A stretch of DNA of 64,000 nt from a virus (Duplodnaviria; Caudoviricetes), in the IMG/VR virus record IMGVR_UViG_3300037851_000141, positions 1 through 64,000 of that record, one strand, 5' to 3'. Under the pieces are notes generated by a model. The model was not told the DNA's origin. It saw only the letters and a list, made by a program, of their open reading frames with translations, and made no database searches. The position numbers and the translations under genes were made by a program. Of the stretch, positions 3,849-53,350 are shown piece by piece; the first letter of the stretch is position 1; each line of letters starts with the position of its first letter.

Positions 3849-4087
3849 GTTGGACCGATACCGTATTCAGACCAAAGATTCGTTGTAAAGCATGTGGAGA
3901 TATAATTATTCCTGGCGATGATCCTAAAGAATGGACTATGTGCCTATGTGAAAAAGTTGGTGTTATGGGCAAAGGTAGAGCATATTCTGTTAAAGGTAAG
4001 GATTATGATGATTTAAGTTATATTGATTTTGATAAAGTGCCGGAACATAAAGGTTGGGACGACAAAAACAAAGAAAAAGGAAACTAA
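3845..4087 (+). CDS. Small Cys-motif (Zn-binding) phage protein
   Basis: IRCKACGDII and CLC motifs; ATGA overlap with the kinase gene. Confidence 0.7.
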   Translation: MSWTDTVFRPKIRCKACGDIIIPGDDPKEWTMCLCEKVGVMGKGRAYSVKGKDYDDLSYIDFDKVPEHKGWDDKNKEKGN

Positions 4088-38015: not shown

Positions 38016-38369
38016 CTATTGTATTCCATCATCTACAAGTCTAAATTCTTGAACGTTTCTTGTTGTATAATCAATTCCATCAATAGTTGTAATTGAAGTA
38101 ATAATAGCAGTATAAAGTCCAGCTACCATTGATGTTGATGTCTGATAACGATAATAATACCATCCAGGACGATTTGGAACTGGTGTCATACTTGTACTTC
38201 TTAGTAATTCCTCAGTCTGAGTTTCATCATAGATAGAAATATTCATACAAGTTGCTGGACGATAATCATTAGCACTTGGAGGAATACTTAAATCAATAAA
38301 TGGCTTATGCTTAACAACAAAAGTTATAGCATTACCTCTGCGATATACTTGATCAAAACGTTCAACCAT
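38016..38369 (-). CDS. Small beta-sandwich (Ig/BppU-like) structural protein
   Basis: ISIYD..M..GWYYY.Y..GLYTA.I pattern; has its own late promoter. Confidence 0.55.
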   Translation of the reverse strand: MVERFDQVYRRGNAITFVVKHKPFIDLSIPPSANDYRPATCMNISIYDETQTEELLRSTSMTPVPNRPGWYYYRYQTSTSMVAGLYTAIITSITTIDGIDYTTRNVQEFRLVDDGIQ

Positions 38370-38386: not shown

Positions 38387-38394
38387 TATTTATA
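38387..38394 (-). promoter_or_regulatory. T4-type late promoter TATAAATA
   Basis: Exact consensus 17 nt upstream of the ATG at 38369. Confidence 0.75.
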
Positions 38395-38482
38395 TATAAT
38401 CCATCAGAAACTCAATTTGCTTTATCCGAAATGATGAACGATGAACTACTAAAAGAATCTTTTACAAAAACCAGATTTCGAG

Positions 38483-38490
38483 TATAAATA
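38483..38490 (+). promoter_or_regulatory. T4-type late promoter TATAAATA upstream of tnpB
   Basis: Exact consensus 26 nt upstream of the tnpB ATG, followed by an AGAGGA RBS-like sequence. Confidence 0.7.
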
Positions 38491-38516
38491 CTGTTAGAGG
38501 ATGATATAATATAATC

Positions 38517-39695
38517 ATGATAAAGGCTTTTAAGTTCCAACTCTTACCTACGAAAGAACAAGAAGTTCTACTAGCAAAACACTTTGGTTGTAAGAGATTT
38601 GTTTGGAATTACTTCCTCAATAGAAGAAAAGAAGAATATCTAAAAGACAAAAAGACACTTAATTACTATGAATGTGCTTCCGAATTAGTCAATCTAAAGA
38701 AACAAGAAGAAACATCTTGGCTCAAAGAAATAAACTCACAGACACTCCAATCCACTTTACGAGATTTAGATGGAGCATATAATAGATTCTTCCGTAAACA
38801 AAGTAAGTTTCCAAAGTTTAAGAGTAAGTGGGATAGACAATCCTTCAGAGTTCCACAACATATATCAGTAAAAAATAATAAGATATTTTTCCCAAAATTC
38901 AATGAAGGTATAAAAATAAATATCCACAGAGAAATTAACGGCGAAATATGCTTCATTGCCGTTTCTAAAACTCCAACTGGAAAATATTTTGTTTCTATTA
39001 CTTGTGAAGTTGGAGAAATACCTAAACTTCCAATAAGTAATAAGTCAATTGGTGTTGATTTAGGTATTAAAGATTTCGCAGTTTGTTCTAATGGAGAAAA
39101 GTTTGATAACCCAAAACATTATCAAAAACTAGAAAAGAAACTCAAGTTTAGACAAAGACAATTAAGTAAAAAACAAAAAGGAAGCAAATCAAGAGATAAA
39201 CAAAGAAAACAAGTAGCCAGAATCCACGAAAAGATTACTAATAGCAGACAAGACTTCTTACATAAACTTTCAACAAAGTTAATTCACGAAAACCAAGTGA
39301 TATGTATTGAAGACTTAGATGTTAAAGGTATGATGGCAGATAGAAATGTTGCTAAATCAATTGGTACGTGTGGTTGGGGTGAATTTGTCCGACAACTCAA
39401 TTACAAAGCAGAATGGTATGGAAGAGAAATCATTAAAGTTGATAGATTCTTCCCAAGTTCTAAAACTTGTAATCACTGTGGTTGGATTAACGAAGGATTA
39501 ACATTGAGTGATAGAGAATGGACTTGTTGTTGTGGAAAAGTAATAGATAGAGACTTAAATGCGGCTCTAAATATATTACAACAAGGGGTAAATCTCAAAA
39601 AGTCTGGTTTAGGAATTAAATCGGACTCTAAACAAAAACAGGTGGAGGCGTCTACATTAGTAGAGTCTACGAAACCTGAAATTCAACATCTTTAG
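38517..39695 (+). CDS. tnpB: TnpB RNA-guided endonuclease (IS605 OrfB family)
   Basis: N-terminal HTH (AFKFQLLPT..HFG..RFVWN), RuvC-I GVDLG, RuvC-II IEDL, Zn ribbon SSKTCNHC..WTCCC, RuvC-III DRDLNAALN; all three acidic catalytic residues present. Confidence 0.95.
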   Translation: MIKAFKFQLLPTKEQEVLLAKHFGCKRFVWNYFLNRRKEEYLKDKKTLNYYECASELVNLKKQEETSWLKEINSQTLQSTLRDLDGAYNRFFRKQSKFPKFKSKWDRQSFRVPQHISVKNNKIFFPKFNEGIKINIHREINGEICFIAVSKTPTGKYFVSITCEVGEIPKLPISNKSIGVDLGIKDFAVCSNGEKFDNPKHYQKLEKKLKFRQRQLSKKQKGSKSRDKQRKQVARIHEKITNSRQDFLHKLSTKLIHENQVICIEDLDVKGMMADRNVAKSIGTCGWGEFVRQLNYKAEWYGREIIKVDRFFPSSKTCNHCGWINEGLTLSDREWTCCCGKVIDRDLNAALNILQQGVNLKKSGLGIKSDSKQKQVEASTLVESTKPEIQHL

Positions 39696-39731
39696 GATGC
39701 TGGGTAGTTCATATAAGAACAGTTTCAATTT
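39580..39731 (+). ncRNA. Predicted TnpB reRNA/omegaRNA scaffold plus guide
   Basis: Inferred from the known TnpB architecture: the scaffold overlaps the tnpB 3' end and right end, and the guide is the flank (tataagaacagtttcaattt). The 5' boundary is a guess. Confidence 0.45.
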
Positions 39732-39837
39732 CTTCGTCGGACAACATAACTGTAGAGAATTCGGCTGTACTATATAATACAACTTCAAGTTCACACGCCT
39801 CAAATATCTGACAGGTTAAATCAACATCCATATTCAT
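39709..39837 (-). CDS. 42-aa ORF whose TGA stop is supplied by the tnpB right end (possibly truncated)
   Basis: ATGA overlap with the hub gene, AAGGAG RBS; MNMDVDLTCQIFEACELEVVLYSTAEFSTVMLSDEEIETVLI. Below the ORF-track cutoff. Confidence 0.5.
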   Translation of the reverse strand: MNMDVDLTCQIFEACELEVVLYSTAEFSTVMLSDEEIETVLI

Positions 39838-41255
39838 CCCTCCTTAGTGACACTCGTAGCTTGAGGAAGATTGTTTTTCTTATTACCAACATCAGGCTCA
39901 TAGATATTGAAGAATGAATCCTTAACTAATACATATTTACGATAACCTTTACCATAATTTACAACATCAACAACGTCCTCAACTAACCATCCACCACTCA
40001 TTTGTTCATCTAATAAATGCTGTTGACCTTGTAAAAATGAAGTCATACCAGACATAAATGATATAAACACAACATCTCCAACCTCAATTTCTTCATTTAT
40101 CATAGTCATTGCCATACAGCGTACTTGATTTTGATGTTCAGTTATTCTATTATTTAAGTAATTTCTACCAACTGTTTCTGGTAATGAACCCAAATAATAT
40201 GCTTTTGACTTCCAATCTGAAATAGAATCTGACCATATAGCAAAGTTTGTAAAATACTTATTATTCTTATTTGAGTTTGTATAAGTGTCATGTAATGTAT
40301 AATATCCGTTAGAATAATCATAGTTGTATAAGGTTCCACCAGCAAGACCAGATGAAACCGTTGTCAGATCATATGTCAAGAACTTATAGTAATATATTGT
40401 GTTTATATTTCTGGTTGAGAATGGTAGAGATACGCCAGCCTCATATTGTTTAAGCGTAGATTCATCAACTAAAGAATACTCAAATATCTTGTCTCTATTA
40501 GGTTTTTTATACATACCTAATATACTCTTCAAGTTGATATTGATTAGCCCTGTTTCTGGATTGCTACTGGTAAATAACTTCACATTACCATTATTTTCAG
40601 AGTCACGGGCATATTCCAACAAGTACTTAAAGAATTGCTGTGGTCGCCAATTAGGACATGATACACGGAATACATTTTTAGTCATCTCATGAAAATCTAT
40701 ATTGAATATCTTTTCATTTATCTTTACATCATCTAACAACACTGATTCTATTATTTCATTTATCTTTGGCGCTTCTATAACACCATTACCTAAATCTTTA
40801 CCGAAGACTCTCTGAATATTGAACTTATTATATTTAAGAAAGAATGGTGCCTCAATTATATGAAACTTTAGACCTTTATATGTAAATCGTTCGTCTTTTG
40901 ATGATGCTGGTTTAAGTTGTATTTCTTCTATGTTTACGATATTGAAATGAATAAGTCTACCAGTAATTGAAGTTTCGGATCCTGTTATAGTATTCTTATA
41001 TAAAACAGTTAATATTTCATTACCAGTTAAGGGCAGGGTTTCGCGTATACCTATATTATCTTGGAATGTTATTGTTCCATATCTATACATTGAATTGATT
41101 GATGAATACACTTCCATTGATATTGGTTTACCCATGGAGTTTGAAGCACTAAATAAGTCTTCTGGAGATTTCTTATCATCAAAATCTGGACCATGATTGA
41201 GATATACAGAGATGTTTACTTCATCAACATGTGGGCTGCCATCGGTATTTGCCAT
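39834..41255 (-). CDS. Baseplate hub protein (gp27/VgrG-N-like)
   Basis: MEVYSSI..GTITFQD.IG.RETLPLTGNE; IEVGDVV..SGGWLV..V..LVKDS; follows gp53. Confidence 0.7.
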   Translation of the reverse strand: MANTDGSPHVDEVNISVYLNHGPDFDDKKSPEDLFSASNSMGKPISMEVYSSINSMYRYGTITFQDNIGIRETLPLTGNEILTVLYKNTITGSETSITGRLIHFNIVNIEEIQLKPASSKDERFTYKGLKFHIIEAPFFLKYNKFNIQRVFGKDLGNGVIEAPKINEIIESVLLDDVKINEKIFNIDFHEMTKNVFRVSCPNWRPQQFFKYLLEYARDSENNGNVKLFTSSNPETGLININLKSILGMYKKPNRDKIFEYSLVDESTLKQYEAGVSLPFSTRNINTIYYYKFLTYDLTTVSSGLAGGTLYNYDYSNGYYTLHDTYTNSNKNNKYFTNFAIWSDSISDWKSKAYYLGSLPETVGRNYLNNRITEHQNQVRCMAMTMINEEIEVGDVVFISFMSGMTSFLQGQQHLLDEQMSGGWLVEDVVDVVNYGKGYRKYVLVKDSFFNIYEPDVGNKKNNLPQATSVTKEG

Positions 41256-52135: not shown

Positions 52136-53350
52136 ATGTGGAAAAAACTAACTAACAAAGAAATCGATAAAAGACTCGAAGGTAGACCAATTTTAAGAAT
52201 AGATGATTATGATAATATGCCACCTAAAACAAAAAAAATTAGATTCCAATGTCTAAAAAATAAAGAACATATTTTTTGTTCTTTAATTGATGGAGTAATT
52301 AACAGGAAATGGGGATGTCCTCTATGTTTAGGTGTAAGAAAATGGACAAACGAATTAATTGATGAAGAAATATTAAAAAAAGGATATCAAATTAAGAGAA
52401 TATCCGATGTTGGAAAAAATGGACATGAAAAAATTAAATTCCAGTGTCTAAAAAATAAAGAACATATATTTGATAACACACCAATAAACGCATTATCCGG
52501 TCAATGTGCCGGTATTTGTAGAATTTGTTCTGAGCGCGAAAAATTTTCTAACATTATGATAAGAGAGAAGCTTGAACAAAACAATAACACAATTGAATTA
52601 TTAGATAATATAGATTATAATAAAATTAAAACATTTCGTTGTAAAAAATGTGATTATTCTTGGAGTGTAAAAAATTTTAAGATGATCATATATGGAAAAA
52701 CTGGATGCCCAAAATGCGCTAAACATATAAAGTTGACTAACGAGGAAATTGATGTTCGTTTATTGAATAGAAATTCTCCAACTAAAAGACTTGGTGATTA
52801 TATTAGTGGACATAATGAAATGTTATGGAAATGTGAAATTTGTCAACATGAGTGGCATCAAAAACCTGGAAAAATTTTATATTATGAACAAGATTGTCCG
52901 ATATGTTTTCGACAACAATCATCATATATAGAATTATATGTTGGTCAGTGTTTATATAAAAATTTCGAAATATTTAAACCTCATTTTAGAATAAAGAATA
53001 TTGAGATATTTGATGATAATCATATATTAATAAGACAATCAGTTGAAATTGATTTTAGAATAATATACAATAATATTATTTATTTCATAGAGTATAATGG
53101 AAGACAGCACTATGAACCTGTTCCATACAGATTTTTAACAAAGGAACAGGCTATTCGAAACTTAAAAGAACAACAAATAAGAGATAGTTGGGTTAAAAAT
53201 TATTGTAAAACAAATAATATAAAACTAATAGTAATTGATGGTCGGACATTTAATAATAAACCATCTGTTAGAACTATAATAGATTATATTTCTTATCAAA
53301 TAAAATCACCCAAATATTACTATTCGGGTGATTATTTTTTATATTGCTAA
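52136..53350 (+). CDS. Free-standing putative homing endonuclease (four Zn-binding repeats plus a Vsr/PD-(D/E)xK-like domain)
   Basis: Four ~60-aa units (K.TN.EI..R..FQC..H/W..GCP.C); C-terminal IDF..IEYNGRQHY..RD..K..YC..NNIKLI.I. Confidence 0.8.
   Translation: MWKKLTNKEIDKRLEGRPILRIDDYDNMPPKTKKIRFQCLKNKEHIFCSLIDGVINRKWGCPLCLGVRKWTNELIDEEILKKGYQIKRISDVGKNGHEKIKFQCLKNKEHIFDNTPINALSGQCAGICRICSEREKFSNIMIREKLEQNNNTIELLDNIDYNKIKTFRCKKCDYSWSVKNFKMIIYGKTGCPKCAKHIKLTNEEIDVRLLNRNSPTKRLGDYISGHNEMLWKCEICQHEWHQKPGKILYYEQDCPICFRQQSSYIELYVGQCLYKNFEIFKPHFRIKNIEIFDDNHILIRQSVEIDFRIIYNNIIYFIEYNGRQHYEPVPYRFLTKEQAIRNLKEQQIRDSWVKNYCKTNNIKLIVIDGRTFNNKPSVRTIIDYISYQIKSPKYYYSGDYFLYC

Follow-up and report, generated by a model that had tools for sequence, protein, structure and literature searches.

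A solo tnpB element in the tail module of a T4-like phage

The stretch of DNA analyzed here, referred to as the window, comprises the first 64 kb of a 331,849-bp IMG/VR virus record (about 92% complete) that derives from an uncultured, freshwater, T4-like phage with a 332-kb genome. Between 38 and 41 kb, in a part of the minus-strand tail and baseplate module (PHROG annotations: tail tube, tail protein, baseplate wedge, and hub), it carries an insertion sequence (IS) whose only gene is tnpB. We propose that this is a non-autonomous, tnpB-only, IS1341-like element of a T4-like-phage lineage which acts as a late-expressed, RNA-guided homing element, a reading that we consider evenly balanced between being right and being wrong. 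Homing into co-infecting relatives is plausible and the best reading of the locus that its sequence offers. It is favored by the lack of tnpA, a decayed left-end hairpin, selection acting on both TnpB and its guide RNA, and an empty site that can be cleanly reconstructed. TnpB is the ancestor of Cas12. To our knowledge, a natural role has been established for it only on bacterial chromosomes that also contain TnpA, where it mediates restorative homing, and we know of no case in which TnpA-independent homing between co-infecting phages has been shown.

Element borders and the reconstructed empty site

The window copy was compared with relatives from three IMG/VR loci and five assembly loci, whose TnpB proteins are 69 to 85% identical to that of the window. 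DNA similarity between the window and these relatives breaks off at defined points, which mark the borders of the element. The right ends of the relatives read GGGTAGTTCAC or GGGTAGTTCAT and diverge immediately afterwards, placing the last base of the window copy at 39712. Exceptions are the decayed right end of L008 (ACTTCAT) and minor variants in L009 and L013. On the left side, 29 unique left ends of the family were compared, some of them from copies that carry tnpA. Relative to an AGAAAAC anchor, the pentamer TTTAT stands at a constant distance in 21 to 25 of these ends (per-base counts, T25/T25/T23/A23/T21). It precedes seven of the nine close copies, with ATTAT and TTTAC in one copy each. 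Owing to this conservation, TTTAT was taken as the transposon-adjacent motif (TAM), and the element as 38394 to 39712. The preliminary description of this DNA had placed the element at 38442 to 39731 and the start of the guide one base too early; the homology stops and the empty-site alignment described below corrected the former, and the conserved right-end boundary moved the guide start to 39713. The right end of the element closes with TTCAT. Following the concept of a transposon-encoded motif paired with a TAM (PMC10055086), this sequence should shield the occupied site from self-cleavage.

Two distant relatives, L007 and L181, show the same locus without the element, with the tail gene, the 42-amino-acid (aa) open reading frame (ORF), the T4-type late-promoter motif TATAAATA, and the 117-aa gene in the same order. 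Removal of 38394 to 39712 in silico joined CTTAT to ATAAATAACG (minus strand), and the resulting sequence aligned to L007 without gaps. It also recreated, within the TATAAATA promoter of the 117-aa gene, a TAA stop codon for the small ORF; the homologues of this ORF in L007 and L181 likewise terminate within or beside the late promoter. The gap-free alignment therefore indicates that the element inserted inside a late promoter without target duplication. Its first base (A at 38394) rebuilds the promoter of the 117-aa gene, and TCA at its right end provides the small ORF with a TGA stop at the same codon position. Since the promoter was rebuilt and the stop codon supplied, the insertion is nearly harmless to the phage.

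It should be noted that the TAM of this copy, TTTAT, is the complement of the TATAAATA late-promoter core. A landing preference for late promoters was considered. Three of the nine close copies and approximately one-fifth of left ends in the wider family follow TATTTAT, versus an expected 10% or so, which is suggestive only, and no such preference is claimed. At the left junctions of L013 (around 2880 to 2890) and L009 (around 3855 to 3865), each upstream of a divergent minus-strand gene, the element likewise comes after TATTTAT; in L013, a 7/8 match on the opposite strand becomes a perfect TATAAATA through the first base of the element. At another locus, P0006, a close-clade TnpB (83% identity) lies between pieces of a cytosine methylase of 99, 196, and 346 aa, all matching PF00145. 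There, the element may have interrupted a DNA cytosine methylase gene or displaced a portion of it.

TnpB protein

The window tnpB gene encodes a complete protein with three Pfam domains. HTH_OrfB_IS605, OrfB_IS605 (RuvC), and the Cas12f1-like TNB domain scored 68, 115, and 88 bits against gathering cutoffs of 21, 30.5, and 26.3 bits, respectively, and the protein matched PHROG 506 with an E value of 7e-138. Residues 3 to 357 aligned to the solved structures of ISDra2 TnpB (E = 5e-85), with the window residues D181, E265, and D346 falling on the catalytic residues D191, E278, and D361. Among 28 homologues, these columns vary little or not at all, in keeping with the intact RuvC D-E-D triad that had been read from the sequence at the outset. 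A four-cysteine zinc finger (C318, C321, C337, and C339) is located between RuvC-II and RuvC-III; its second pair has CxC spacing, which is common to most of the clade. The intact triad, the zinc finger, and the full length of the protein rule out a TldR, that is, a nuclease-dead TnpB serving as a transcription factor or repressor. In clade comparisons, the ratio of nonsynonymous to synonymous divergence (dN/dS) was 0.10 to 0.18 at dS values of 0.5 to 1.3. As judged from these ratios, TnpB is under purifying selection.

Guide RNA

The final 113 nucleotides (nt) of the element fold into three stem-loops followed by the tail GTAGTTCAT (z = -3.3), and the third of these corresponds to the right-end hairpin noted in the preliminary description. 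Compensatory changes were observed at 21 of 41 predicted scaffold pairs among nine copies. A covariance model built from these copies yielded a hit at the tnpB 3' end in 57 viral loci and a single hit in the window, with a score of 118 bits. Double (compensatory) changes affected 26 of 31 pairs of the covariance alignment, and none of 500 shuffles performed as well; 96% of its cells were paired, compared with 73% in shuffles and 25 to 43% in slid controls, values that favor the structure somewhat as the alignment was fitted to the model. Synonymous divergence fell from 0.8 to 1.6 in codons 1 to 330 to 0.1 to 0.4 in the last 60 codons, where dN/dS is approximately 1. Selection in this part of the gene therefore targets the RNA and not the tail of the protein. 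No Rfam match was found between 36 and 42 kb at an E value of 1 or lower, so the guide RNA does not belong to a curated family.

Because the right end closes with GTAGTTCAT at 39712, the guide is predicted to start at 39713 (ATAAGAAC/ATAAGAACAG). The guide segment has no second close match in the window, and no site in the genome has fewer than three mismatches to its first 16 nt. The predicted segment is exactly antisense to the last codons of the 42-aa late ORF, and late sense-antisense pairing between the guide and the transcript of this ORF is possible.

Late promoter

A copy of TATAAATA is located within the left end of the element, 26 nt before the tnpB ATG, where the preliminary description had seen it. 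Genome-wide, this motif is not overrepresented (80 copies versus 82 to 107 expected). Sixty of the 80 copies were found 0 to 60 nt upstream of an ORF start on the same strand, mostly at 15 to 30 nt, whereas composition-matched 8-mers of shuffled order occupied such positions in a mean of 7.3 out of 58 cases. The spacing upstream of tnpB falls within the 15- to 30-nt mode. The phage also encodes a gp55-like late sigma factor (PHROG 234; E = 2e-25). The placement of its copies makes it well supported that TATAAATA behaves as a promoter across this genome.

A single TATAAATA before tnpB is insignificant by itself, as 14% of the phage genes have one. Its weight derives from its conservation in relatives and its recurrence within the genome. 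All copies with at least 71.5% identity have the motif; they represent six independent lineages of one monophyletic subclade, in which it remained invariant while synonymous sites came near saturation. The sister subclade has TATAAATT, CATAAGAA, or CATAACTG at the same position. Upstream of the tnpB genes of 79 bacterial homologues TATAAATA is absent, and among 78 other viral loci it occurs only in one other lineage (two rows), at a different position. A sigma-70 promoter of the form TTTACA-N16-TATAAA was also considered for the left end. The consensus scan made no call because the -10 box lacks its final T; this promoter was retained only as a possible ancestral one.

The genome contains four TnpB-family genes, and all four cassettes, which span at least two IS families (IS605 and IS607), have a same-strand TATAAATA 28 to 34 nt before their first gene. 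The motif precedes 23.8% of genes whose upstream gap measures 45 nt or more, and against this rate the recurrence is significant (P = 0.003; P = 0.0008 with an HNH gene included). The closest relative of the IS607 tnpB (68% identity) lacks TATAAATA, and the IS607 gene therefore gained it independently. The HNH gene, a free-standing homing endonuclease gene elsewhere in the window, shares with the window tnpB the 11-mer TATAAATACTG, which contains the late-promoter motif. At the level of sequence, late wiring of selfish nucleases in this phage is well supported. The earlier proposal that the element has adapted to the late transcription program of the phage is well supported by the genome-wide behavior of the motif, the sigma factor, the invariance within the subclade, and the four cassettes.

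Some further features of these genes were observed. The IS607-type element (G000, 239237 to 241122, minus strand; L002/L003) is apparently complete, with a 202-aa serine-recombinase TnpA carrying a MerR-type helix-turn-helix and a 403-aa TnpB that is 38% identical to that of the window, separated by a 65-bp gap. Its tnpA is preceded by the extended -10-like sequence TGTGTATAAT. This arrangement suggests split timing, in which tnpA would be expressed from a host-type promoter and tnpB late. The two other TnpB-family genes (G000, 181191 to 182956, plus strand, and 199027 to 200519, minus strand) encode divergent proteins of 536 and 438 aa, and both are translationally coupled to short genes upstream of them (52 and 59 aa, respectively). 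In the window, the HNH gene and tnpB are among the few plus-strand genes in a minus-strand structural block.

Transposase, left end, and copy number

No Y1 tnpA was detected in the 332-kb genome, either with Pfam PF01797 or with a hidden Markov model (HMM) built from tnpA sequences at related loci. One weak match to the Y1 HMM (E = 0.003) was rejected, since it lies in a low-complexity antisense frame inside tnpB. The tnpA of the IS607 element, located approximately 200 kb away, is not cognate. The element is present in a single copy. Among loci of the family, a Y1 tnpA was found within 2.5 kb at 43 of the 78 other viral and 19 of the 79 bacterial ones, and at none of 14 close-clade loci. On the tree, the solo copies form an 11-row clade (support, 100/99). 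Approximately 75% of tnpB genes have no tnpA nearby (PMC10055086), so a solo tnpB is unremarkable in itself.

The left end typically consists of an outer stem around a GC-rich hairpin with a CTTTAG loop, and it folds with -8 to -15.5 kcal/mol in six relatives. The corresponding sequence of the window copy, whose right-end subterminal hairpin is intact, no longer folds to any extent (Table 1), and the left-end hairpins of L005 and L008 have also been lost. Because of this decay, the window copy, which by its sequence descends from the IS200/IS605 family, is probably no longer a TnpA substrate. The missing tnpA and the degenerate left end agree with the preliminary description.

A single copy with a decayed left end, for which no matching empty target was found in public data, might also be an inert remnant, that is, a recently immobilized IS without function in which disabling mutations have not yet accumulated. 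We consider this highly improbable. The ORF has kept its full length and every catalytic and zinc-binding residue, the low dN/dS extends across the clade at near-saturated dS, the guide-RNA stems of the window copy are intact by both fold and covariance score, and so is the promoter.

Proposed homing mechanism and alternative explanations

The element inserted 3' of TTTAT, within the TATAAATA promoter of a tail-module gene. According to the mechanism that we favor, the late promoter in its left end would drive tnpB late in infection, and processing of the transcript at its 3' end would yield a guide RNA that takes its guide from the first 16 to 20 nt of the right flank. Co-infecting relatives in which the junction of TTTAT with ATAAGAACAG is uninterrupted would next be cut by the TnpB-RNA complex (predicted target, TTTAT followed by ATAAGAACAGTTTCAA). 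Recombination-dependent repair by the phage would copy the element into the break, or the rival genome would be eliminated. The occupied allele would be spared, because the target is there preceded by TTCAT and not by TTTAT.

Several observations weigh against this mechanism. The only relatives with an empty site are distant (52 to 75% protein identity), and the guide does not match their junctions. A scan of metagenome contigs with the flanking tail protein returned distant relatives only and no close relative with a matching empty target; the exact TAM-plus-guide site was not found in IMG/VR. A single base separates the occupied junction (TTCAT) from the TAM, so self-cutting may occur. As for the promoter, the TATAAATA in the left end is, judging from its distribution, a single evolutionary gain within the clade that was then retained, and it overlaps an older -10-like position of TTTACA-N16. 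With regard to mobility, clade copies occupy unrelated sites and share only the element, including L010 and L019, which are 90% identical in DNA. The lineage has thus transposed in the past, presumably with TnpA acting in trans. The left-end hairpin of six relatives, moreover, covaries through compensatory changes.

These last points are those expected of an ordinary non-autonomous IS, which would still be mobilized, or would have been until a short time ago, by a Y1 TnpA that the host or the IS605 element of a co-infecting phage provides in trans. Its TnpB would do no more than re-cut the donor site after excision (restorative activity), and its late promoter would reflect the usual mode of phage gene expression. 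The prevalence of solo tnpB genes, which are thought to be mobilized in trans (PMC10055086), and the frequency of Y1 tnpA at related viral loci are also in line with this explanation, which we nevertheless regard as rather unlikely. The left-end hairpin of the window copy no longer folds and two relatives have lost theirs, Y1 tnpA is missing both from the genome and beside the close-clade loci, and the late promoter recurs on all TnpB cassettes above the level of random genes. The view that the element persists by means other than transposition, put forward in the preliminary description, holds at most for this decayed copy; it fails for the lineage, given the copies at unrelated sites and the covarying left ends. 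Shared flanks among clade copies were considered as possible homing tracts and dismissed, as the pairs with shared flanks come from the same phage and the others share the element only.

Alternatively, the phage itself may have domesticated TnpB and its guide RNA, keeping them mainly as a weapon that destroys closely related, insertion-free competitors, with spread of the element being secondary. In competition between phages, homing endonucleases are able to serve as such a weapon (PMC13565253, section 3.2). The long-term purifying selection in the absence of tnpA and a target between conserved, essential tail genes would fit such a role, which cannot be told apart from homing by sequence alone. 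However, the guide is set by the flank and not chosen, and each phage of the clade has the insertion at a different site, a pattern that looks selfish rather than adaptive. We regard domestication as improbable.

Relation to known systems

The element resembles ISDra2 (IS200/IS605; PDB 8BF8, 8EXA, and 8H1J) in its three-domain TnpB with a D-E-D triad, a guide-RNA scaffold that overlaps the 3' end of the gene with the guide taken from the right flank, and a T-rich 5-nt TAM 5' of the left end. It differs from ISDra2 in its TAM (TTTAT versus TTGAT), in the second half of the zinc finger (CxC versus CxxC), and in lacking tnpA in both element and genome. Moreover, its host is a lytic T4-like phage, and it has a late promoter of its own. 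As in IS1341-group elements such as the Geobacillus ISGst elements (Meers et al., PMC10055086), tnpB stands alone between ends with subterminal hairpins, the TAM and the transposon-encoded motif are paired alike, and the donor joint is scarless. ISGst TnpB cuts the empty site and thereby biases inheritance (PMC10055086), and the same is proposed for the element described here. ISGst elements coexist with their cognate TnpA in the same cell, and restorative homing has been shown for them (PMC10055086), whereas here the left-end hairpin has decayed, the genome has no cognate TnpA, and any homing would take place between co-infecting phage genomes.

Similarities to the homing endonuclease genes of phage T4 (I-TevI/II/III, Seg, and Mob; Edgell et al., PMC2988022) are also apparent. 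In both cases, a selfish nuclease gene lies between conserved phage genes and the host promoter is preserved at the junction, which favors retention. The intron-encoded T4 enzymes likewise have their own late promoter, and T4 segD, between genes 23 and 24, shows that such genes can be antisense to structural genes (PMC2988022). Unlike the T4 enzymes, the element would recognize its target through an RNA guide and a TAM instead of a protein, and the cassette has transposon ends and a history of transposition. The closest counterpart in terms of predicted mechanism is transposon non-restorative homing (PMC13565253), which proposes TnpA-independent spread of IS605 elements through TnpB cleavage of the orthologous empty site in co-infecting or co-resident phages and plasmids. 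That review draws on evidence from plasmid populations and treats phages theoretically; the locus described here is a natural candidate in a phage, recognized from its sequence. The principle of homing has already been proposed in the literature.

Features of the locus

The features of the element and of its surroundings are compiled in Table 1. A megablast search with the element region against 50,697 phage records gave no matches.

Table 1. Positions of the element, its parts, and neighboring genes in the window
Feature	Position	Strand	Evidence or remark
Whole solo IS200/IS605-type (IS1341-like) element, 1,319 bp, no target-site duplication	38394-39712	+	Homology to L004, L005, and others ends here
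TTTAT, TAM just outside the left end	38389-38393	+	Fixed distance from the left-end anchor
Decayed remnant of nested left-end hairpin (TnpA recognition)	38401-38445	+	Fold -1.1 kcal/mol, z = +0.97
TTTACA, possible ancestral -35-like box, 16 nt upstream of TATAAATA	38461-38466	+	Exact in 8/9 copies
TATAAATA, T4-type late promoter within the left end	38483-38490	+	26 nt before tnpB ATG; invariant in six-lineage subclade
tnpB, 392 aa, RuvC D181/E265/D346 and CxxC...CxC zinc finger	38517-39695	+	ORF, Pfam, PHROG, structure alignment
Predicted guide-RNA (omegaRNA or right-end element RNA, reRNA) scaffold	39600-39712	+	Stem-loops 39601-39627, 39639-39678, and 39681-39705 (right-end hairpin), then tail GTAGTTCAT
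TTCAT, last bases of the right end, transposon-encoded motif differing from the TAM	39708-39712	+	9/9 copies end in TTCAC or TTCAT
Predicted guide/target segment ATAAGAACAGTTTCAATTTC	39713-39732	+	First flank base after conserved right end; in the empty allele directly after TTTAT
TATAAATA late promoter of the 117-aa gene	38387-38394	-	First T now from the first base of the element (38394); same motif in the same place in L007 and L181
117-aa late gene, tail module, left neighbor of the element	38016-38369	-	ORF; orthologues 69-75% identical directly follow the small ORF in empty-site L007 and L181
42-aa ORF, tail module	39709-39837	-	TGA stop (39709-39711) comes from the right end of the element; same-length homologues in L007 and L181
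473-aa tail protein, right neighbor of the element	39834-41255	-	PHROG 350 tail protein; L007 orthologue 52% identical
Free-standing HNH-type homing endonuclease (PHROG 559; DUF4379 zinc-finger domain)	52136-53350	+	TATAAATA at -40
TATAAATA starts at the four TnpB cassettes			-34 (window tnpB); -34 (IS607 tnpB, in the tnpA-tnpB gap); -34 (52-aa gene and 536-aa TnpB); -28 (59-aa gene and 438-aa TnpB)

Implications

The locus illustrates how a transposon can insert within a promoter and a stop codon and leave both of them working. With exact borders, the TAM TTTAT, a guide, and a reconstructed target, it represents a fully specified test case for RNA-guided homing, in which the decayed left end argues against TnpA mobility. 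This reading corresponds to the TnpA-independent, non-restorative homing proposed for co-infecting phages and plasmids (PMC13565253) and parallels the control of T4 intron endonucleases by late promoters (PMC2988022). That four TnpB cassettes of a single genome have converged on late-promoter wiring suggests selection for late timing of these nucleases, as is the case for the T4 intron endonucleases. On a wider scale, and tentatively, with more doubt than confidence, we propose that a lineage of TnpB and its guide RNA in T4-like phages may have given up TnpA-dependent transposition in favor of late-expressed, RNA-guided homing, a natural gene drive spreading among co-infecting phages. Independently of this, each TnpB cassette of the present phage would have been rewired to the late promoter, and late promoters would be natural landing and cutting sites because the TTTAT TAM complements their core.

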